A stretch of 64,000 nt of DNA from an uncultured Acidobacteriota bacterium (GCA_963725335.1 CAVRYD010000014.1:698598-762597), one strand, 5' to 3'; shown: positions 2,045 through 30,610, counted from the stretch's first letter. Notes: generated from the sequence alone by a model not told the origin. Numbers and translations are program-made.

Positions 2045-3178
2045 CTAGGCTGCGGCAACGCGCGCGTGCACGACGGCGCCGCCTCGTGTCAGCAGGGTCT
2101 CCCGCGTGATTTCGTCCTCGGCATTGATTGGCAGCGACGGTTGCGCCGAACCATCCTTGCCGAGCAGGTGAGAGAGGAAGGTGGTGATGTTCTTCGAGTA
2201 CATCTGGCTCGCGTGATAGGGAGCGAGCGCTGGCGGATTGGACGGCCCTAGAATGGTCACGCCACGATGCACCACGACCTCGTCCGGCTTCGTCAGCTCG
2301 CAGTTGCCGCCGCGTTCCGCCGCGAGATCGACGACGACCGAACCGGGTGCCATGGCTTCGACCATTTCGGTTGTCAGCAGAATCGGCGCGGGTTTTCCCG
2401 GAATGAGCGCGGTCGTGATGACGACGTCGCTTGCCGCGACGACCTTCAGCATCATTTCGCGCTGGCGTTTGTAGAAGGCCTCGTCCTGAGCCTTGGCGTA
2501 GCCGCCTTTGTCTTCGGCGTCGCCAGCCTCGAGCGGAAGCTCGACGAACCGCGCCCCGAGGCTCTGCACCTGCTCCTTCACCGCGGGGCGCACGTCGTAG
2601 GCTTCGACCTTGGCTCCCAATCGCCTGGCAGTCGAAATCGCCTGAAGACCGGCGACGCCCGCGCCCATGATGAACACGCGCGCTGGTGAAATCGTGCCGG
2701 CCGCGGTCATCAGCATCGGAAACATCCGCGGCAAGGTTGTGGCCGCGAGGAGCACGCCTTTGTAGCCGGCGATCGTCGCCATCGACGACAACGCGTCCAT
2801 GCTTTGCGCGCGGGTGATACGCGGCATCAGCTCCATCGAGAAAAGGTTGATCCCCGTCGGAGCCAGCTGACGAATGACTCCAGGGTTGCCAAGCGGATCG
2901 GCAAAGCCGATGACCGTCTGTCCGCTCCGAAGAACGGACGCATCGGCCGGCGTGGCACGAACCTGCAGAACGATGTCCGACGTGCTGAAGAGCTCAGGAC
3001 GCGGCACGACAGCCGCGCCCTGCGAGCGGTAGTCGCCGTCGGGAAAGCCGGCGGCTGTCCCTGCCCCCGATTCCACAACGACCTGAAGTCCGGACTTGAT
3101 AAGGCCCGGCACCGCCGACGGAATCACGGCGACGCGGGTCTCACCCGGCCACGTCTCTTTTGGAATGCCGACTCTCAT
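2045..3178 (-). CDS. pntA: NAD(P) transhydrogenase alpha subunit part 1 (PntAA/dI-like)
   Basis: ORF track 2045..3808 is over-extended, since it overlaps the 3199..4896 gene in another frame. The conserved N-terminus MRVGIPKETWPGETRVA begins at ATG 3178. NAD site GAGVAGLQA; 377 aa; length divisible by 3. Confidence 0.85.
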   Translation of the reverse strand: MRVGIPKETWPGETRVAVIPSAVPGLIKSGLQVVVESGAGTAAGFPDGDYRSQGAAVVPRPELFSTSDIVLQVRATPADASVLRSGQTVIGFADPLGNPGVIRQLAPTGINLFSMELMPRITRAQSMDALSSMATIAGYKGVLLAATTLPRMFPMLMTAAGTISPARVFIMGAGVAGLQAISTARRLGAKVEAYDVRPAVKEQVQSLGARFVELPLEAGDAEDKGGYAKAQDEAFYKRQREMMLKVVAASDVVITTALIPGKPAPILLTTEMVEAMAPGSVVVDLAAERGGNCELTKPDEVVVHRGVTILGPSNPPALAPYHASQMYSKNITTFLSHLLGKDGSAQPSLPINAEDEITRETLLTRGGAVVHARVAAA

Positions 3179-9522: not shown

Positions 9523-9770
9523 GCGGATTGCGGATTGAAGATTGCGGATTTTGTGATGGCCGATTGTCGATTGAGATTGCTGATTGTCGATTGAGATTGC
9601 CAATTTACGATTGTATGGCCGAATCGGCCGGCTCAGAGGCCAATCGCCATTCCAATCAGCAATCGTCAATCCAAGTCAGCAATCGTCAATCCAAATCAGC
9701 AGTCCGCAATCTCAATCCGCAATCCGCAATCAAGAAATCCGCAATCTTCAATCCGCAATCAGCAATTCTT
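9523..9770. repeat. heptamer-phased imperfect palindrome (GATTGNN units / NNCAATC units)
   Basis: Left arm is built of GATTGCG/GATTGAA-type 7-mers and the right arm of their complements. The outer 26 nt are perfect inverted repeats: GATTGCGGATTGAAGATTGCGGATTT at 9526-9551 versus its reverse complement at 9735-9760. The centre lies near 9620-9640. Confidence 0.85.
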
Positions 9771-11136
9771 TTGCGGCTTTGTGCCCGCTAACGACCGCGC
9801 TTTCGATGGTGCCCGGAAGCCCTGTGTCGATCCAGTCGCCGGCGAGAACGAGGCCGTTGAGTGGTGTCGAGGTCGGCGGGCGAGCGGGTTGGCCCGGCGC
9901 GAGCGAGAACGTCGCATGTTTTTCTCGAACGATGGTGGCGCGAACGAGGCGGCGCTGGCGAGCGCCGGGAAGTGCTTCCTGCACTTCCCTCGCGGCCAGC
10001 GCGGTGAGCTCGTCACGTCCCAGCGACGTCAACGCGGTAGCCCCGCTCGAGACCAGCGAGAGATGCGAGGCGCTTTCGCCGAATGCCATGCGCTTGTCGA
10101 AGACCCATTGCATCTCGCGCCCGGGCAGGCCGACGAACGGTTCGTCCATGACGCGGCCGTCGTACCAGAGGTTGACGGTCACGATGGGCATCGATTCCAT
10201 CGCGCTGGCGGAGGCAACGATCGGAACGAGTTCGGGCGGTGGCGAGGGAAGGAACAGGCGTCCGAGATCGAACCATGGAACCGCCGCGATCACCCGGCGG
10301 GTCGCGATGCGCTCGCCGCGGACATCAACGCCGCACACCCGTCCATGTTCCGTGATCACCCTGGCGAGTGCGTTGGTGCGGACGTCGCCGCCTCGCGCCT
10401 CGATGAACCGTTTCGCTGGCTCCGCGTACATTTCGTGCAAGGGACACGCCGGCAGCACAAGCGCCGAGTCGCGCGCATCAGGCCCGAACATCTGCGCGAG
10501 CACACGCACGAACGGCGACGCGGACGCCGCTGCCGGCGACTGGTTGAGCGCCGCGACCGCGAGCGGCTCCCACAACCAGGACCGCAAATTCGGACGCTGT
10601 CCGTGCGCAGCCAGCCATTCAGACACGGTTCCGTCGGGTTTGGCAGAAACGGACCCGGTTCGTGTGAGCTCGCGGCGCGCCCGGCGCAGCTCCCGTGCGA
10701 GCATCAGCACTGAGAGCCGATCGCGCCAGGGAATGGCGCCCCATTGCAGCACCCCGGCGAGCAGGTGGTACGGAGAGGGGAGCTTCGGGCAGCGCAAGAT
10801 GGAACGCCGACCGGATCGATCGAGATACGGCACGGCCAGCGCCGGCTGTACCTGGATGCGATCGAGCGCCTGTATCCGTTCGAGAAATTCAAACGTCGCG
10901 TGATAACAGCCGAAGAGCACGTGCTGGCCGTTGTCGACGAGCTCCCCCGTTTCGCGATCGCGGAAGGCGGTCGCGCGTCCGCCGAGCTGCGACCTGGCAT
11001 CGAGCACGATCACACGCTCGCCACGCGCCGCCAGCGCTGCCGCGGCGCTGAGGCCAGCGAACCCGCCACCGACGACCACGACCGGATCCGATGGACGCAC
11101 GGGAGATCCCATGTCGGGCGTCGCGCTGTCTGACAT
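9748..11136 (-). CDS. hpnE: hydroxysqualene dehydroxylase HpnE (FAD-dependent, phytoene-desaturase fold)
   Basis: ORF track 9748..11460 trimmed to ATG 11136 (MSDSATPD...), which lies 8 nt after the hpnD stop. FAD motif VVVGGGFAGLSAA, followed by GGRATAFRD...DNGQHVLFGCY as in HpnE. Confidence 0.85.
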   Translation of the reverse strand: MSDSATPDMGSPVRPSDPVVVVGGGFAGLSAAAALAARGERVIVLDARSQLGGRATAFRDRETGELVDNGQHVLFGCYHATFEFLERIQALDRIQVQPALAVPYLDRSGRRSILRCPKLPSPYHLLAGVLQWGAIPWRDRLSVLMLARELRRARRELTRTGSVSAKPDGTVSEWLAAHGQRPNLRSWLWEPLAVAALNQSPAAASASPFVRVLAQMFGPDARDSALVLPACPLHEMYAEPAKRFIEARGGDVRTNALARVITEHGRVCGVDVRGERIATRRVIAAVPWFDLGRLFLPSPPPELVPIVASASAMESMPIVTVNLWYDGRVMDEPFVGLPGREMQWVFDKRMAFGESASHLSLVSSGATALTSLGRDELTALAAREVQEALPGARQRRLVRATIVREKHATFSLAPGQPARPPTSTPLNGLVLAGDWIDTGLPGTIESAVVSGHKAAKELLIAD

Positions 11137-11144
11137 GGTGACGG

Positions 11145-11984
11145 TCACCGCACGCGCAGCATGGTGCGCGCCCAGGTGGCGGCCGCGATGACCGCCCGCT
11201 GCGGGCGTGGAATTCGAACGACGCGGGTAAACACATCGTAGTCCGCGCGCTCGATCCGGTTCAGGATGCTGAGGTAGATGGCGCCCATGATCTCGGCTGC
11301 CGCCAGCCGTCGCCCGTCGACCGCCGGCAGTTCGGCGGCCGCCTTGACGTAATAGGTGCGTGCCCGATCCGCCTGCTGCCGAAGGAGGCTTTTCACACTC
11401 GGCGATTGCACGCCGCGTCCCCTCGCGTTTATTTCCCGGACGAGATCGTCTTCGGAACACTGGTGCGCGCGTAGGTCGGCTTGAGGGATATAGACACGGC
11501 CGCGTGAAAGGTCCTCGGGTACGTCGCGCAGGATGTTGGTCAACTGCAGCGCGACCCCAAGATCGGTGGCGTATTGTCGCGAGCGCGGATCGACGTATCC
11601 GAAGATCTCGAGGCAGATGAGTCCGATCGCCGAAGCCACTCGTATGCAGTACCCGTACAAGTCGGCGAACGATTCGTATCGCCGCGAATCGAGATCCATC
11701 TCGACGCCCTCGATGAGCGCGTCGAACGCGGATCGCGGCAGGTGGAACTCACCGACGAGGGGGGCAAGCGCGCGTCCCTGCGAGGTCTGCGGCGGCCCGC
11801 CGTCGAAAACCGTGGCGAGCTCCGCTCTCCAGCGCGCCACCTGCGATCGTGCCGGTTCCCCCACTCCCGCCTCGTCCACGGCATCGTCGACGGCGCGGCA
11901 GAAATCCCAGACGGCGACGATCGCGCGGCGTTTGTCCGGCGGCAGCACCAGGAACGAGTAGTAGAAGTTCGTGTCGCGGGCCAT
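11145..11984 (-). CDS. hpnD: presqualene diphosphate synthase HpnD (squalene/phytoene synthase family)
   Basis: ORF track 11145..12044 trimmed to the conserved start MARDTNFYYSFLVLPPDKRRAI. Asp-rich motif AVDDAVDE. Confidence 0.85.
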   Translation of the reverse strand: MARDTNFYYSFLVLPPDKRRAIVAVWDFCRAVDDAVDEAGVGEPARSQVARWRAELATVFDGGPPQTSQGRALAPLVGEFHLPRSAFDALIEGVEMDLDSRRYESFADLYGYCIRVASAIGLICLEIFGYVDPRSRQYATDLGVALQLTNILRDVPEDLSRGRVYIPQADLRAHQCSEDDLVREINARGRGVQSPSVKSLLRQQADRARTYYVKAAAELPAVDGRRLAAAEIMGAIYLSILNRIERADYDVFTRVVRIPRPQRAVIAAATWARTMLRVR

Positions 11985-11985
11985 G

Positions 11986-12903
11986 TCAGGGCGCTGGCGT
12001 CGCTTTCCTCCAGCGGAGGGCCCGCCAGACGAGGATTGGCGCATCGCCCGCTCCGAGCGTTGGCCGGTGATTCCAGACGTCGAACCGTGCCGCTTCGATA
12101 TTCTGCAGAATCCGCATGCCGCCGAGCCACGTCAATCGCAGTTCCCACCGAAGCCGGCCGCGCACCGCGTCGCAGATGGGACGACCCGCCTCGAATAATT
12201 CCTTGGTCCGTCGCGTCGCCTGCTGCACGGCGAGTCGCCACTCGTGCGTCATCTCTCCACGATCGAGATCCGCTTCCCGCGCACGGGTACGATTGCGTTC
12301 TTCGGCTGGCAGATACAGCCGGCCCCGACTCCAATCGATTGCCAGATCCTGCCAGAAGTTCGTCAACTGCAGCGCCGTGCACACCGCATCGGAGTGTGCG
12401 TCGAGCGACGCGCTGTCATAGCCGGCCACGCGCAGGACCAGGCGGCCGACCGGATTGGCAGACCGGCGACAGTAGTCGAGCACCTCACGCCACGTCTCGT
12501 AGCGGGTGGTGACGACATCCTGTCGAAAGGCGCTCAGCAGATCGTGGAAAAGCGAGCGCGGCAGCTGATGAGCTTGGATGGTGTTCTCGAGCGCCATGAA
12601 TATCAACTCGTCGCTCGGGCCGGCTGCTGCGTCATACACCGCAGGAACTCCGCGATCGAGCCGCGCGCTCCACGCATCCAGCAGCCGCAGCCGTTCGTCG
12701 GCATCAGGACCGGGCTCGTCTGCGAAATCGTCGGCGCGACGGGCAAACGCATAGATCGCAGCGATGTGCGGCCGCATCGGTGCCGGTAACAGCCGGGACG
12801 CGACCGGGAAGTTCTCGTAATGGTTCCGCGCGATGCGCTCGCAGTAGCGGTACGCCGTCTCGATGGCGCTGCCGGCGTTGGTGGGCGCCGGCGATTTCAC
12901 CAT
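11986..12903 (-). CDS. hpnC: hydroxysqualene synthase HpnC (squalene/phytoene synthase family)
   Basis: 305-aa ORF with YRYCERIARNHYENFPVASRLLP and the Asp-rich ARRADDFADE. It sits directly upstream of hpnD-hpnE. Confidence 0.85.
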   Translation of the reverse strand: MVKSPAPTNAGSAIETAYRYCERIARNHYENFPVASRLLPAPMRPHIAAIYAFARRADDFADEPGPDADERLRLLDAWSARLDRGVPAVYDAAAGPSDELIFMALENTIQAHQLPRSLFHDLLSAFRQDVVTTRYETWREVLDYCRRSANPVGRLVLRVAGYDSASLDAHSDAVCTALQLTNFWQDLAIDWSRGRLYLPAEERNRTRAREADLDRGEMTHEWRLAVQQATRRTKELFEAGRPICDAVRGRLRWELRLTWLGGMRILQNIEAARFDVWNHRPTLGAGDAPILVWRALRWRKATPAP

Positions 12904-15997: not shown

Positions 15998-16393
15998 TCA
16001 CTCTGATGAGCTGTGCGAGCCCCGGTCGTTCCAGTCGCTTCGGCGCAGGTATTTGATGAATCCTCCGAGCATCTTGCCGAGTTCCTCGCCGGCTGTGAGA
16101 TGCGGGTTCAGTTCGTCCTTCGAGATGAGTTTCTTGTGATGTGCCTGTCGAAGGCGCCTGAGAACCTCTGCCAGCGAAGCTTTCGAGTGGGTCAGGAAGT
16201 GCGCAAACGCACGATCGGTGCCTTGCTCGAAGCCTTCCTCCATGTTTGAGGTAATCGAGTCGTTGGCGTCCGAGATCTGTTCATGGAGTTTGCGATCTCT
16301 GCGCAGCCGTGGCGTCTCCAATATCGCATTAACTGCACTCCAGAAAGCCTCGGCCTTGTGATACATGGGGAGTTCCTCTAGCTTGTGAGCCAT
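15998..16393 (-). CDS. four-helix-bundle protein (23S rRNA intervening-sequence protein family)
   Basis: ORF track 15998..16438; likely start ATG 16393 (MAHKLEELPMYHKAEAFWSAV...). The pattern ...ISDANDSITSNMEEGF...F..FL..SKASLAEV...L matches my recollection of this family. Confidence 0.75.
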   Translation of the reverse strand: MAHKLEELPMYHKAEAFWSAVNAILETPRLRRDRKLHEQISDANDSITSNMEEGFEQGTDRAFAHFLTHSKASLAEVLRRLRQAHHKKLISKDELNPHLTAGEELGKMLGGFIKYLRRSDWNDRGSHSSSE

Positions 16394-16440
16394 GCCCCAG
16401 CAGTTAGGCACAGCACATGCCAGGATCCGGCATCCCACGA

Positions 16441-16584
16441 TTCAGGGATTCAGGGATTCAGGGATTCCAGGATTCAAGGATTCCGGGGATTCGGGGATTT
16501 GATTCGAGGATTCGGGATTGAGGATTCGGGATTGAAGGATTCGGGATTAGGCGATTCAGGATCAGTGATTAGTGATCAGGGATT
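16441..16584. repeat. right arm of heptamer-phased inverted repeat flanking the four-helix-bundle gene
   Basis: GGGATTC/AGGATTC-type 7-8 nt units. The outer part is the reverse complement of 15885-15946. It overlaps the last 5 codons and stop of the thyX-like gene (..SIPDH*). Confidence 0.85.
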
Positions 16585-18176
16585 GACCGCCGTTGTTCGA
16601 GAGCCCGTTCGGAACTCAGACGTTCGAGTTCGACTTCGGAGTGATCCACGAACTGCATCGCGGCGGCCAGTGCGCGGTGGCCGGCCCGCTGCGCGATCAG
16701 CGTGTGCATGCGCTGACACACTCGCCGATATGCGGGGTGGCCCTGCGGCGCGGAGCGCAGCTCGAGAACGTGCATCGCTTCGCGCGCGTTCATCTCCATG
16801 TAGAACCGCACCCGGTACACCATCGCAACCGCATATGGTGCAGCCGCTCTGAGGCCGGCCGCCGTCAGGGCATCGTGAAGGTTCGCGGACCGTTCCATGA
16901 CCTGGTTCCAGTCGTCCCCCGCTCCCGCTTCGACGATCGCTTCCGGCTGAATGAATCCGTGCCGGGGGGTCAGCGGCTGCCACTCGATCGTCAACAGGCG
17001 ATGGCGCTGCAGATCGCGAAACGCGCCATAGTCGGTCAGCACGTCGAAGCGATAACTCGTGCGCTCGAAGGCGCGGCCGGGACGATGGCGGCGGTTGGTG
17101 CGGTTGCCAACGTAGGCGCGAAGGATCGTGAGACGCTCATCAGCCGACAAGCGCTTCGCGATGTCGAGAAGCTGATCGTCGGGGAGGTCGGAAACCGCGT
17201 ACAGCGCCGCCGCGACGACTTTCGTTTCCCCCGCGGGGTCGAAGTCGGTCAGGGTCACCTCATCGCGCGGCTCGGGCTCGACCGCGGACAGGTCCGCCGC
17301 GACGTCTTCGAGTTCCTCGCGGATCGCCGCGAAGTAGCCGCTCCAGCGCCCGCCCCGGTCGGGCTGGTCGACACGCGTGAGGAATGCGGGAATGATCTTC
17401 CGCAACTCGACGAGCATCTGGTCAGCGCACGCACGAACCTCGGAAAGCGGATTGGCGCGCATGCGCAGCAACAACGCCTCGAACGCTTGACCGGTGCCGA
17501 AGATGCCGACGTTCGATTGTGTGGCAGCGGGAAGCATTCCGCGCAGTGTGTCGAGCGCCTTTGCGCGGATCGCCGCGCGATGGACGCCATCGGAATCCCC
17601 CGGCGCTTTTGGATATCGGCGGCTGAAGTACTCCTGCATCGCCGGAATCCATCTGGCGTACGTCTCGAACGCGCGATCCATCGTGTGCACGTACTGGTCG
17701 CGCAATTGTCCGGCTCCGATTTCCTCTGGAACGTGGTAACGCCACCGGTCGTGGAGCTTGTCCGTGTAAGGAACGTACCGCGTCGACTGCTCGAGGTAGG
17801 CCATCAGGCGACCCCATTCGAGCACTTTGGTGAGGACGTTGGACACGTACTCGCACGCGATGTGCGCACCGCCGAGCTGCGCGACGGAATCATCGCCGTA
17901 GTCGCTGAAGACCCGCGCGTAGAGGCGGTCGGCGCGTTCTATCGCGGCGCTGGCGGCAGGCGCGCGCGCACCCCGCTCGTCTTCGGCCGCGCCGACCTTG
18001 TCGGCGAACTCGTCGAGGAACAGCCGGCGAAGACTCTTGGCCGAGCGGGAATATCTCGCGAAAAGCGCGCCCTTGACCGTCTCGGGCAGGTTGATCAGCG
18101 CAAAGATGTGGCTATCGAGGTTGGTGAAGTACGGCGTCAGCCGCGCGCGTTCTTCCGGCGTGAACTCTTCGGACAC
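16569..18176 (-). CDS. ThyX-like FAD-dependent thymidylate synthase family protein (double-length form)
   Basis: 535-aa ORF starting at GTG. ARYSRS and two RHR-containing segments (TNRRHRPGR, DLQRHRLLT) recall the ThyX motif. The assignment is from memory of long Thy1-domain proteins and has not been searched. Confidence 0.55.
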   Translation of the reverse strand: MSEEFTPEERARLTPYFTNLDSHIFALINLPETVKGALFARYSRSAKSLRRLFLDEFADKVGAAEDERGARAPAASAAIERADRLYARVFSDYGDDSVAQLGGAHIACEYVSNVLTKVLEWGRLMAYLEQSTRYVPYTDKLHDRWRYHVPEEIGAGQLRDQYVHTMDRAFETYARWIPAMQEYFSRRYPKAPGDSDGVHRAAIRAKALDTLRGMLPAATQSNVGIFGTGQAFEALLLRMRANPLSEVRACADQMLVELRKIIPAFLTRVDQPDRGGRWSGYFAAIREELEDVAADLSAVEPEPRDEVTLTDFDPAGETKVVAAALYAVSDLPDDQLLDIAKRLSADERLTILRAYVGNRTNRRHRPGRAFERTSYRFDVLTDYGAFRDLQRHRLLTIEWQPLTPRHGFIQPEAIVEAGAGDDWNQVMERSANLHDALTAAGLRAAAPYAVAMVYRVRFYMEMNAREAMHVLELRSAPQGHPAYRRVCQRMHTLIAQRAGHRALAAAMQFVDHSEVELERLSSERALEQRRSIPDH

Positions 18177-18212
18177 TCGCGGATTGTACAGCGGGTTGTC
18201 GCGACCGCGACG

Positions 18213-18428
18213 TCAGACGCCTCAGGTTCCGCCGAATCCGATCGTCACGCTCTCGCCATCCACGATGACCGGCACGCGGCGCGCGCCTTTCGTGTACGCG
18301 AGCATTCTGTCGAGATCCGCTGGGCTCTTCTTGACGTTGAGGTATTGAAACGGAATGTTGGCCTCGACGTAGTGATCGCGAGCGCTCTCGGTATACGGAC
18401 ATCCGTCCTTGCCAAAGATCAGAACCAT
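18213..18428 (-). CDS. glutaredoxin-like small protein; possible selenoprotein if UGA 18224-18222 is read as Sec (conventional ORF is 18222..18428)
   Basis: 68-aa thioredoxin-fold ORF (MVLIFGKDGCPYTESARDHY...RRVPVIVDGESVTIGFGGT). The minus strand continues TGA GGC GTC TGA, a U-G-V-stop tail. Confidence 0.7.
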
Positions 18429-18470: not shown

Positions 18471-19214
18471 ATGCTCCTTCTGCACGCCAACAACGCCTCG
18501 CCCTGGACCGGTCCCACGGGCAATAACACGTACCTGCTTCCGGGCCGTGTGCCCGCACTCGTGGATGCGGGCACCGGCAACGAGTCCCATCTCCAGAGCA
18601 TTGAAGAGGCGTTGCAGGGACGCCCGCTCGCACGCGTTCTCCTCACGCACGGCCATTCCGATCACGTCGGGGGCCTGCCCGCCGTTCTGCAGCGGTGGCC
18701 GTCAGCTGACGTGGTCCGTTTCGGGCATTCGGAGACCGTGGTCGACGCCGGCGACACGAGTCTGCGGATCGTCCACACGCCCGGACACGCGCCGGATCAT
18801 GTCTGCTTCTTCGATGAGCGCACGCGCGACATGTACTGTGGGGATCTCGTCCGCGCGGGAGGATCGATCGTCATTCCGGCAAGCAAGGGAGGCAACCTGC
18901 GTCAATATCTCGACTCCCTGACCCGCGCGCGGGCGTTGGCCCCGGCCCGGCTCCTGCCAGGGCACGGTCCAATCATCGATAATCCCGACGCCGTGTTTGA
19001 TCAGTACATCCGTCATCGTCGCCAACGCGAAGACGAAGTCATTGCTGCGCTTCGTGCCGGCTCGATGACGCCGGAGGAGATCGTGCCGCGAATCTACGGC
19101 GCGTTGAGCCCGGTTCTGGCTTCCGCTGCCGCCGACAGCGTGCTCGCTCACCTCGTCAAGCTGCACGAAGAGCAGCGCGCCTTCGTTTCAGATGACGGCT
19201 GGCGGCTGGTGTAG
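18471..19214 (+). CDS. MBL-fold metallo-hydrolase
   Basis: Only the last 247 aa of the 873-aa ORF 16593..19214 look real. ATG 18471 begins MLLLHANNASPWTGPTGNNTYLL, with the metal motif THGHSDHVGG and later HTPGHAPDH. Confidence 0.85.
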   Translation: MLLLHANNASPWTGPTGNNTYLLPGRVPALVDAGTGNESHLQSIEEALQGRPLARVLLTHGHSDHVGGLPAVLQRWPSADVVRFGHSETVVDAGDTSLRIVHTPGHAPDHVCFFDERTRDMYCGDLVRAGGSIVIPASKGGNLRQYLDSLTRARALAPARLLPGHGPIIDNPDAVFDQYIRHRRQREDEVIAALRAGSMTPEEIVPRIYGALSPVLASAAADSVLAHLVKLHEEQRAFVSDDGWRLV

Positions 19215-19310
19215 GTGGCGGTTGGCGACGGACGTGTCTGCATTATGGACTGCGCGTGGGGCCTAGCCTCCGCCAAGGCTTCGGCTAACGCGCTCTCGCT
19301 CGGCGACGTT

Positions 19311-19351
19311 GCGCCTCGCTCGGGTCGCAGGCGCTTTCCCTTTTCCCTTTC
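19311..19351. repeat. hairpin (GCGCCT-N12-AGGCGC) plus TTTTCCC heptamer tract, copy 1
   Basis: gcgcctcgctcgggtcgcaggcgctttcccttttccctttc. A near-identical copy in the same orientation lies at 20432-20484. This copy sits downstream of the + strand MBL gene like an intrinsic terminator. Confidence 0.7.
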
Positions 19352-19752
19352 TACGCGGGTAGCCAGCCCTTTGGCAGGTCGGGGACGCGTGCGGCGCGTT
19401 TGGCGGCTTTTGGCATTGCGTCGCGGATCACCTGCTCGAGCTGTTCGAGATAAGCGACGAAGCGCTGACGCCCGTCGGCGCTCAAACGGCAGAGCGTTTG
19501 AGGCCGACGGTTTTCAAATCCTTTCCAGACCTCGACGAGTCCGGCCTCTCGGAGGACGTCAAGGTGTCGGCTCAGGTTTCCATCCGTCAGCGCGCACAAT
19601 CGCTTCAGCTCTGAAAACAGCAGCCCCTCGGGTCGCGTCACGAGCGACGTCATGATCCCAAGCCGCGCCTTTTCATGGAGCACCCGCTCCAGTCCGTCGT
19701 AGGCGAAGCGCCCCTGGTCCTCGTCCCTTTCAGACTTCTTCTTCCCAGCCAT
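19351..19752 (-). CDS. winged-helix transcriptional regulator (ArsR/MarR-like HTH)
   Basis: 133-aa ORF with LHEKARLGIMTSLVTRPEGLLFSELKRLCALTDGNLSRHLDVLREAGLVEV, typical of a wHTH recognition region. Confidence 0.75.
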   Translation of the reverse strand: MAGKKKSERDEDQGRFAYDGLERVLHEKARLGIMTSLVTRPEGLLFSELKRLCALTDGNLSRHLDVLREAGLVEVWKGFENRRPQTLCRLSADGRQRFVAYLEQLEQVIRDAMPKAAKRAARVPDLPKGWLPA

Positions 19753-20386
19753 CGTTCTCCTCGGGACGCGTTCCGGCGGGGTGCGCCGCCGCGCCGCGTC
19801 GTTCCAGGTTCCAGAACAGCACGAATGCCGCCATCAGTTGTCCCGCGCCGAACGTTCCGCCGACCCACCACCCGTGCAGCGGTTCGGGCCCGTGCGCCAT
19901 CCAGAGAAGCGCGACGCCCGCCGCGTAGTAGAACAACGCGACCCATCCGCTCGCGCGCGGCAGATAAGGCCGCGACGCAAAGATGCCGACGCCGAAACAG
20001 ATGGCCCAGATGCCTGGAAGCAGCGGCACCAGCGCCGCGTCCAACCGCACGAAGCTGGCGGAGATGATCGCGCCCGCCATCAGGCTGGGCAGAAACTGCC
20101 CGACGACCTGGCGAGTGCGTCGCCGCGCGGCGGATTCATCCCGCAGGTAGTTATAGATGATCTCGCTCACGCCAACGAGCGCAGCGCATGCGGCAATCGC
20201 GCTCCAGTACCAGACGAATCCAATCGGATCGCGTACGCCAAGCGCGGGCGCCTGAGCCCATGCCGCAGCAATCCCGATGATCCCGGACGCCGCCACCGGA
20301 ACCGATCGATAACCGCGGTAGACCTCTCCCTTCGCAAGCTGCTGGTGGATATCGGCAAGCTGTCCGAGCGCGCGGGAAAGGTCCAT
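19730..20386 (-). CDS. integral membrane protein of unknown function
   Basis: 218-aa ORF with 5-6 hydrophobic segments. It overlaps the downstream regulator gene by 23 nt, so they are probably co-transcribed. Confidence 0.6.
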   Translation of the reverse strand: MDLSRALGQLADIHQQLAKGEVYRGYRSVPVAASGIIGIAAAWAQAPALGVRDPIGFVWYWSAIAACAALVGVSEIIYNYLRDESAARRRTRQVVGQFLPSLMAGAIISASFVRLDAALVPLLPGIWAICFGVGIFASRPYLPRASGWVALFYYAAGVALLWMAHGPEPLHGWWVGGTFGAGQLMAAFVLFWNLERRGAAAHPAGTRPEENDGWEEEV

Positions 20387-20431
20387 CCAGCTATACTTTG
20401 CGATACAAAGGAATTGAAGTCAATGGGCTAC

Positions 20432-20484
20432 GCGCCTCGCTCGAGCCGCAGGCGCTTTCCCTTTTCCCTTTTCCCTTTTCCCTT
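20432..20484. repeat. hairpin (GCGCCT-N12-AGGCGC) plus TTTTCCC heptamer tract, copy 2
   Basis: gcgcctcgctcgagccgcaggcgctttcccttttcccttttcccttttccctt. This is a direct repeat of 19311-19351 with two extra TTTTCCC units. Confidence 0.7.
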
Positions 20485-20499
20485 GTACGATTGTCGGTC

Positions 20500-21337
20500 A
20501 TGAACGGCTACGCGAACTCGCATCTCGTGTTGAGCCCGCGCGATCTGGCGGCGCTGCTCGAGCCAGGTGCTGTGCCGGCGCCGCTGGTGCTCGATCTCCG
20601 ACCACCAGAGGCGTATACGGCGGGTCACATCCCGGGCGCAATCCATCTCGACCTCTGGGGGGTCAGCCTCATTGATACCGATCCGGCGCCGCTCACAGCA
20701 TTCATGTGGATGATCGAGCACGTGCTTGCCGTGCACGGGGTCGATGCGGCCACGCCAGTCGTCGTATACGACGAACAGTCGGGCGTTCGCGCGGCCCGCG
20801 CATTCTGGTTCCTGGAACACTTTGGTCATCCGTCGGTTCGTGTTCTGGATGGCGGTTTCAACGCCTGGACTGCCGCGCGACTTCCCATCACCAGAGACGC
20901 GGAGCCGCCGCCCTTGAGCGAATGGACGGGTCGTCGTGACGAGCGCACGCTGGCGACCTGGAAAGACGTGAAGAGCGCAATCGGCCGCCCCGACGCCGTG
21001 ATTATCGATACTCGAAGCGATGCCGAGTACCGACGGATCTTTGGTGAGGGCGCGTCGCGGCGGCGCCGTCCCAGGCGCCGTGCACATCGAGTGGACCCGA
21101 AACCTTGCCGAGTCCGGCGAGTTCAAGTCCGCCGAGGAACTGAAGAAAATGTATACGGACGCCGGGGTCACTCCGGACCGCGAGGTGATTACCTACTGTC
21201 AAGGCGGCTATCGGGCCGCGAATTCATATCTGGCTCTCCGTCTGCTGGGTTATCCACGCGTCCGGATGTACATCGGATCGTGGAAGGAATGGGGCGATCG
21301 CGAAGACCTGCCCATCGAGCATCCGACGCACCGGTAA
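20500..21337 (+). pseudogene. thiosulfate/3-mercaptopyruvate sulfurtransferase (tandem rhodanese), one +1 frame break
   Basis: ORF-track pieces 20398..21678 (real from ATG 20500, MNGYANSHLVLSPRDL..., good to ...DTRSDAEY) and 21020..21337 (..GAVPGAVHIEW...ITYCQGGYRAANSY). Deleting one c at 21030-21031 joins them. 838 nt minus 1 is a multiple of 3. Confidence 0.8.

Positions 21338-28839: not shown

Positions 28840-30610
<1,771 letters not shown>

Follow-up and report, generated by a model that had tools for sequence, protein, structure and literature searches.

A Glutaredoxin-like UXX-star Family 1 Gene of a Vicinamibacterales Acidobacterium with a Probable C-terminal Selenocysteine and a Conserved SECIS-like Hairpin in the 3' UTR

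Introduction

The UXX-star families consist of glutaredoxin-like proteins, and the primary paper on them is said to be the one that Haft and Tolstoy published in mSystems in 2025. The members of UXX-star family 1 have a glutaredoxin-like fold of about 70 amino acids, a C-terminal U-x-x-stop (U, selenocysteine, Sec) and a threonine as the fourth residue of the N-terminal motif. A glutaredoxin-like domain that ends in (U/C)-x-x-stop is also present in UXX-star families 2 and 3 and in the HUGP/GUXX-star fusion, and many of their members keep dithiol motifs of the CPYC type (e.g., P0149 and P0182). A review published in 2026 (PMC13188914) lists family 1 as a selenoprotein family under the name "Distant Grx-like protein 1", with an exemplar that contains two Sec residues (UxxT and tail), and describes such proteins as "largely uncharacterized". 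This name is absent from the main text of the 2008 GOS paper that is cited for it.

In the present study, we analysed a gene in a 64,000-nucleotide stretch of DNA from an uncultured Acidobacteriota bacterium (GCA_963725335.1, CAVRYD010000014.1:698598-762597; hereafter, the window). The predicted protein shares with UXX-star family 1 the size, the fold, the U-x-x-stop terminus and the fourth-position threonine, and it has CPYT where many members of the other families have CPYC-type motifs. Unlike the exemplar in the review, it has Cys10 and a single Sec, as do 98 of 105 relatives. An earlier note on the window had proposed a candidate C-terminal Sec in this gene. According to the sequence comparisons described below, the gene very probably encodes a 71-residue glutaredoxin/NrdH-like selenoprotein of UXX-star family 1, in which a UGA codon would be recoded by means of a SECIS element.

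Results

Structure of the Gene

On the minus strand, the open reading frame at 18428..18222 (-) encoded 68 amino acids (MVLIFGKDGCPYTESARDHYVEANIPFQYLNVKKSPADLDRMLAYTKGARRVPVIVDGESVTIGFGGT), and its product ran from MVLIFGKDGCPYT to SVTIGFGGT. The full recoded coding sequence, as delimited by the reading frame, the family profile NF041114 and the conserved tail, occupied 18213..18428 (-) and comprised 71 codons, from M1 to T68-U69-G70-V71, followed by the true stop. The N-terminal redox motif, Cys10-Pro-Tyr-Thr13 (TGT CCG TAT ACC), was located at 18390..18401 (-). The in-frame UGA that is read here as Sec69 was located at 18222..18224 (-), and it was followed by the Gly70-Val71 codons at 18216..18221 (-), namely GGC (18221-18219) and GTC (18218-18216), and by the true stop TGA at 18213..18215 (-). 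A single base, C (18212), separated this second TGA from the 5' arm of a SECIS-like hairpin in the predicted 3' UTR at 18198..18211 (-), which consisted of GUCGC (18211-18207), the loop GGUC (18206-18203) and GCGAC (18202-18198), with a dG of -6.3 kcal/mol. The downstream neighbour, a gene for a tandem ThyX-like protein of 535 amino acids at 16569..18176 (-), belongs to the context and lies outside the recoding unit.

The earlier note had described the same reading frame, CPYT motif and TGA-GGC-GTC-TGA end, and all of these and their coordinates proved correct when the sequence was re-read. Its hairpin, GUCGC-GGUC-GCGAC at 18211-18198, beginning 10 nt past the first UGA, was exact as well. The longer alternative pairing that it mentioned, between UCGCGG (18210-18205) and CCGCGA (18182-18177), was present, and the minimum free energy (MFE) structure of the 52-nt stretch calculated with RNAfold used this pairing, with an MFE of -15.9. 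In a single sequence, a stop, two codons and another stop are insignificant by themselves, and so is a lone 5-bp hairpin at -6.3 kcal/mol. The pattern went far beyond chance because it was conserved among the relatives, with TGA at the recoded site in 105/105 loci and a hairpin at a fixed position in 89/89 tails.

Family Membership and Annotation

The 68-residue call scored 102.4 bits against the NCBIfam model NF041114, "UXX-star selenoprotein family 1", which is an equivalog model with a cutoff of 72 bits. When Cys-Gly-Val was appended (with U written as C), the score was 111.6 bits and the match covered all 70 positions of the profile (1-70). The two forms also passed the parent model, NF041212 ("Uxx-star family glutaredoxin-like (seleno)protein"), whose cutoff is 66, with 86 and 94 bits. 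The protein fell far below the cutoffs of TIGR02194 for NrdH (24 bits vs. 86) and of GRX_bact (31 vs. 90), and it scored 47-52 bits against NF041211, NF047338 and NF045501 (UXX-star 2, UXX-star 3 and HUGP/GUXX-star), for which the cutoffs range from 97 to 325. In Pfam, it matched only the generic glutaredoxin domain PF00462, with 36.8 bits. These results indicated that the protein is a member of a real family with a Sec/Cys-x-x-stop terminus, which the earlier note had mentioned.

A search of approximately 5.8 billion proteins yielded 537 relatives, nearly all of which were called as exactly 68 amino acids ending in GGT. Most of them were labelled "glutaredoxin", and a few (P0013 and P0028) bore the NCBI name [quoted passage not shown]. 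It had been predicted that standard gene callers would truncate the protein; more than 100 database homologues were indeed called as 68 amino acids, and since the exact product of the window gene is itself on record as an unnamed 68-residue call, the truncation is real. The window gene is thus an unexceptional member of a selenoprotein family that has already been curated, and it is therefore not new. The single-Sec form is not new either, as NCBI already names it (P0013 and P0028).

Conservation of the Sequence Past the First TGA

We compared loci encoding relatives, 29 of them genomic and 80 metagenomic (109 in total), and 105 of these were complete. They came from metagenome-assembled genomes (MAGs) of Vicinamibacterales and other Acidobacteriota, plus one NC10 bacterium. 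The first stop was TGA in 105/105 complete loci and was never TAA or TAG. The codon after it was GGN in 104/105 loci (GGC 60, GGG 24, GGA 13, GGT 7, GCG 1), and the next codon was GTN in 103/105 loci (GTG 51, GTC 38, GTT 8, GTA 6, GCG 2). The second stop was always in frame, 9 nt past the Sec codon, and was TGA in 41 loci, TAG in 41 and TAA in 23. In the nucleotide alignment (A2), the first and second positions of the Gly and Val codons were invariant or nearly so, and the wobble positions were free, with all four bases used. Invariant first and second positions combined with a free wobble position are the signature of translated sequence, and this signature ended at the second stop. The same kind of pattern was observed in two distant members with 54-60% identity (TGA GGT GTC TAA and TGA GGC GTG TGA).

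The homologues might have ended at GFGGT with no conservation beyond it, a case that the earlier note had named as evidence against its proposal. This was not so, and the following 9 nt were kept as Gly, Val and a stop, with synonymous variation. The note had also asked whether homologues carry Cys in place of the TGA, and Cys was found at the Sec position in some of them: P0130 ended with GTCGV, P0159 with GYCGI and P0206 with GSCSF. Among the 105 close loci, none had Cys at the position of Sec69. Three database entries (P0166, P0138 and P0176) had Trp at both the N- and C-terminal Sec positions (SWPYT...GGTWGV), and these are most likely products of gene calling under an alternative genetic code in which UGA was translated as Trp.

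Gene callers and most databases treat the first TGA as an ordinary stop, which would make the product a 68-residue monothiol glutaredoxin-like protein and would leave the downstream sequence and hairpin to act as a terminator, an mRNA-stability element or a regulatory element of the next gene. At an ordinary stop, all three stop codons should turn up among the loci, as they do at the second stop, and the first stop was TGA solely. The 6 nt between the stops evolved in a codon-like manner with only the wobble bases varying, the second stop was in frame in every locus, and in some homologues a Cys codon, followed by the same Gly-Val tail, replaces the TGA. Together with the hairpin data given below, these results made an ordinary stop highly improbable, and they suggested that the first TGA is translated and that the protein extends by three residues to the second stop.

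A Second Site of Sec/Cys Exchange at Codon 10

In the protein alignment (A1), the residues C10, P11, Y12 and T13 were invariant. Across the 105 complete loci, codon 10 was TGC or TGT in 98 and TGA in 7, a Sec/Cys pair of codons. The seven TGA loci were L019, L020, L022, L025, L026, L027 and L099, in which T/G-U-P-Y/H-T (UPYT or UPHT) replaced x-C-P-Y-T. They also kept the U-G/A-V tail, and three of them, scored against NF041114, gave 108-120 bits. A stem-bulge-stem hairpin was observed approximately 13 nt past the codon-10 UGA, within the coding region, in 5/7 of these loci. The seven loci match the entry of the family in the review, which gives "UxxT, 2 Sec" (PMC13188914). If the codon-10 UGA were undecoded, a peptide of nine residues would be left, and this points indirectly to Sec decoding in the lineage. 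Judged from the alignments, residues 10 and 69 appeared to be the two positions of the protein at which Sec and Cys interchange.

The SECIS-like Hairpin

In a per-sequence hairpin search, a GC-rich hairpin was found directly past the second stop in 89/89 distinct tails. The stem started at +13 to +18 (with the U of UGA as 1) in 86/89 tails and was mostly 5-8 bp long (87/89), with a loop of 3-5 nt. The loop was GGUC in 39/89 tails and was of the GGC, GUC or GGG type in most others. A G stood within the first two loop bases in 87/89 tails, and the spacing from the UGA to the loop was 16-20 nt in 82/89. A dG of -8 kcal/mol or below was reached by 79% of the tails vs. 11% of dinucleotide shuffles.

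The 89 tails contained 54 distinct 5' arms. In loop-anchored sets (4-nt loop, n=26; 3-nt loop, n=23), changes on both sides were found at all seven pairs. The covariation was 0.635 for the 4-nt loops and 0.871 for the 3-nt loops, vs. approximately 0.18 for shuffles (0/500 reached the observed values) and 0.03-0.17 for slid-partner controls; as these alignments were built from per-sequence picked hairpins, they favour pairing and inflate the percent paired, but the variety of compensated stems that surround the invariant GGUC is not affected by this. The conservation of a SECIS-like structure, which the earlier note had put forward as a check, was thus borne out by a hairpin in every tail and by compensatory changes. 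When 88 tails were simply aligned with MAFFT, RNAalifold found no consensus structure, because the tails differ in loop length and in the register of the hairpin. An Rfam search of the whole window at gathering thresholds, and of 18100-18300 at permissive settings, returned neither a SECIS nor any other RNA family of relevance.

Under the published bSECIS model (PMC13188914, legend of Figure 2), the loop measures 3-9 nt and has a G as one of its first two bases, the stem has 4-16 bp, the distance from the UGA to the loop is 16-37 nt, and the MFE is -7.5 kcal/mol or below. On these measures, the family-wide hairpin fits the model. The window's own copy was marginal against the same thresholds: its 4-nt GGUC loop, 5-bp stem and loop G were within the limits, and its spacing of 15 nt (limits 16-37) and its local dG of -6.3 kcal/mol (limit -7.5 or below) were just outside them. 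The hairpins of its closest relatives have a sixth base pair that the window copy lacks. Since only two codons come after the UGA, the whole hairpin falls in the 3' UTR, which is unusual for bacteria.

The weakness of the window hairpin, at -6.3 kcal/mol, would suit a sequence that follows an ordinary stop and has no part in decoding. A role as a terminator was considered and rejected, as a T-run followed the hairpin in 4/89 tails and was missing in the other 85/89, and a scan of the window found no terminator-like site there. A SECIS-like function remained the better account of the family-wide hairpin.

Search for the Sec Machinery

We searched for the genes of Sec synthesis and incorporation in the window and in the related loci. 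ARAGORN gave a tRNA-Glu only in the window, with no tRNA-Sec, and was also negative for tRNA-Sec on 60 loci. NCBIfam models applied to about 37 large ORFs of the window found no SelA, SelB or SelD, and tblastn searches with approximate probes for the SelA, SelB and SelD of E. coli, which give a weak negative, found no match. Altogether, selA, selB, selC and selD were not found in the 64-kb window or in the flanks of the 109 related loci, a result that also speaks for an ordinary stop. A crude scan of the window for in-frame TGA in coding-like sequence found no other selenoprotein genes, and its four hits were gene-junction and antisense artefacts. In locus L028, ARAGORN called a 93-nt "tRNA-???", whose anticodon had four bases, at 2796-2888 (-), approximately 110 nt upstream of the selenoprotein gene. 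This call is probably false, as Rfam shows neither a tRNA nor a tRNA-Sec there.

The UGA could be read through by a suppressor tRNA that inserts Cys, Trp, Gly or another residue, and the candidates for such a reading are the tRNA-Sec-like allo-tRNAs of Acidobacteria or a SelB-dependent tRNA-Cys(UCA). Suppressor-type non-canonical tRNAs have been reported from acidobacterial sequences (PMC5389517), and selC, selA and selD were not seen in the window. Nevertheless, both the position of the family hairpins and the composition of their loops match the SECIS model of the SelB type, the family is curated as one of selenoproteins, and lineages that use Cys at site 69 have a Cys codon there. Allo-tRNAs were not found near any of the loci, and the odd call in L028 was not supported by Rfam. 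On this evidence, we regard the insertion of a residue other than Sec as very improbable. We infer that Sec, and not another residue, is inserted at position 69.

Predicted Fold and Proposed Mechanism

The AlphaFold2 (AF2) model had a pLDDT of 91.5 and the topology b1-a1-b2-a2-b3-b4, with no C-terminal helix. The nearest solved folds were cGrx1 (7c10), BC3987 (3zij) and NrdH (1h75 and 4fiw), with TM scores of 0.77-0.83. No solved structure was closely related in sequence, and the best PDB match (E = 6e-5) was the Grx domain of a thioredoxin glutathione reductase (TGR). The protein departed from a classical dithiol glutaredoxin or NrdH in having CPYT with an invariant Thr13 and a model that ends after b4. 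In the predicted geometry, Cys10 opens helix 1, Thr13 stands at the usual position of the resolving Cys, and the tail GGT-U-GV comes after strand b4. In glutaredoxins and NrdH, the region after b4 flanks the active site.

We propose that, when the ribosome meets the UGA at 18224-18222, the hairpin just beyond the real stop would act as a bacterial SECIS. Once its GGUC apical loop had recruited SelB-GTP-Sec-tRNA(Sec), Sec would be inserted, and Gly and Val would be added before termination at the second TGA. If recoding failed, a 68-residue product without Sec would be released. The resulting protein would be a minimal thioredoxin fold in which Sec69 lies on a short Gly-rich tail directly past strand b4. 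Based on the model, the most likely chemistry would be a selenenylsulfide/selenol-thiol couple formed by Cys10 and Sec69, and a diselenide would be expected instead in the relatives that have Sec at position 10 as well. It is plausible that Sec69 stands in for the missing resolving Cys. This pairing is deduced from the predicted geometry, and any physiological substrate would be conjectural.

Neighbouring Genes

The tandem ThyX-like gene started 36 nt past the true stop of the selenoprotein gene. Its product matched the Pfam domain Thy1 (PF02511) with 124 bits in two stretches, corresponding to two half-domains, and scored 44.7 bits vs. a cutoff of 87.9 for the NCBIfam thyX model. Parts of the ThyX motif were recognised, with S-x-R-Y preserved in the N-terminal half and both RHR and the NAR...LR segment in the C-terminal half. 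No solved structure was closely related to this protein in sequence. The ThyX-like gene adjoined the selenoprotein gene in 82/104 loci, all in the Vicinamibacterales clade, and lay downstream on the same strand in 78/104, often at a distance of 28-42 nt. Next to more distant members of the family, the neighbours were Amidohydro_2, DUF2064 and MoaA and were not ThyX-like, so the ThyX-like gene was rejected as a family-wide partner. In 28/28 loci with a short gap, a -10-like TACAAT, usually after TG, was found 6-7 nt upstream of the ThyX-like GTG (18183-18188 (-) in the window), and no Shine-Dalgarno sequence was found between the two. These sequence features suggested that the ThyX-like gene may have its own transcript, possibly leaderless and starting from the GTG, directly after the SECIS hairpin.

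The Sec-tailed protein of Vicinamibacterales could serve the adjacent tandem ThyX-like flavoprotein as a dedicated redox partner, a relationship for which NrdH serving class Ib ribonucleotide reductase would be the parallel. If this were true, selenium would be tied to the synthesis of thymidylate or a related nucleotide. Because the distant members have other neighbours and the ThyX-like gene has its own TACAAT, the linkage may be a gene order inherited within one order. We therefore consider the partnership quite doubtful and treat the linkage as a lead and not as evidence of partnership. Just downstream of the ThyX-like gene, at 15998-16438 (-), a gene encoded a 146-residue protein of PF05635, the four-helix-bundle family named "23S rRNA-intervening sequence protein", and this gene was found in 5 related loci only.

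Divergent from the selenoprotein gene, the region at 18501-21337 encoded an MBL-fold hydrolase that carries a BLACT winged-helix domain, an HTH regulator of the ArsR type, a protein of 218 residues that is probably a membrane protein and matched no family, and a rhodanese. This set resembles the operons that respond to persulfide or sulfide stress. The rhodanese was a two-domain rhodanese/3-mercaptopyruvate sulfurtransferase (3-MST) at 20470-21337 (+), which was split over two frames with the junction near 21010-21030. In eight relatives, the halves share one frame, and the split gene is either a frameshift pseudogene or the result of an assembly indel. A FadE-type acyl-CoA dehydrogenase at 28876-30610 (-) was likewise spread over two overlapping ORFs in different frames, which covered profile positions 1-327 and 334-550 and met near 29590-29600. 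This second apparent frameshift hints at indel errors in the assembly. A further cluster at 9751-12903 (-), hpnC-hpnD-hpnE, gave strong NCBIfam matches and corresponds to the three-step bacterial squalene route; it is ordinary and, as judged from these matches, would confirm a potential for hopanoid-type lipids.

The neighbourhood also bears on the function of the protein, independently of the recoding. The review raises the binding of metal or substrate as an alternative function (PMC13188914), and Cys10 and Sec69 could accordingly act as ligands, with which the protein would bind or carry a metal or metalloid or a species of sulfur or selenium. The upstream MBL-fold hydrolase, ArsR-type winged-helix regulator, membrane protein and rhodanese/3-MST would fit such a role, and the MBL gene was divergently adjacent in 32/79 loci with enough upstream sequence. 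Against this, the fold and the CPYT motif are of the thiol-disulfide oxidoreductase type, the neighbours were not kept in more distant family members, and no metal-binding domain or motif was detected. A ligand role is thus unlikely, although less so than the readings without Sec, and a redox role for Cys10 and Sec69 is preferred.

Discussion

Recognising the recoding corrects the protein, as the 68-residue calls lack three residues, including the probable catalytic Sec, and it marks a soil acidobacterium of the Vicinamibacterales as a probable selenium user. The scientific gain is modest, because the family is already in NCBIfam and is listed in the review (PMC13188914). The present study adds the coding signature past the UGA across 105 loci, the covariation-supported SECIS-like hairpin with a GGUC-type loop in the 3' UTR, the exchange of Sec and Cys at both positions of the putative redox pair and the lineage-specific link to the tandem ThyX-like gene. 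This family-wide evidence corrects a systematically truncated annotation and offers handles for a first functional test of an uncharacterised family.

The putative SECIS element resembles the E. coli fdhF-type SECIS and the bSECIS consensus in being a small hairpin at a fixed short distance 3' of the UGA, with a loop that starts with G and then G/U. The fdhF element is longer, whereas the hairpin described here has 5-8 bp and no bulge, lies wholly beyond the true stop and has no Rfam match.

In the protein, the NrdH-redoxins and small glutaredoxins (1h75, 4fiw, 7c10 and 3zij) share with the window protein a Cys that opens helix 1 and a cis-Pro "VP" before strand b3. They have a CxxC motif (CVQC in NrdH and CPYC in Grx) and a C-terminal helix, whereas the window protein has CPYT, no terminal helix and a Sec tail. 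The tail finds its likeness in the Gly-Cys-Sec-Gly end of animal thioredoxin reductase (TrxR) and TGR, in which Sec also lies within three residues of the C-terminus in a flexible Gly-rich segment, and the SECIS is in the 3' UTR because Sec is so near the end of the protein. In these enzymes, the flexible tail shuttles to a distant redox centre, which provides a mechanistic analogy to the tail proposed here. The flavoenzyme fold of TrxR and TGR is unrelated, and TGR matches the window protein through its N-terminal Grx domain only. Moreover, TrxR and TGR use a eukaryotic SECIS with SBP2 and have the partner Cys adjacent to Sec (Cys-Sec), whereas in the window protein the putative partner of Sec69 is 59 residues away.
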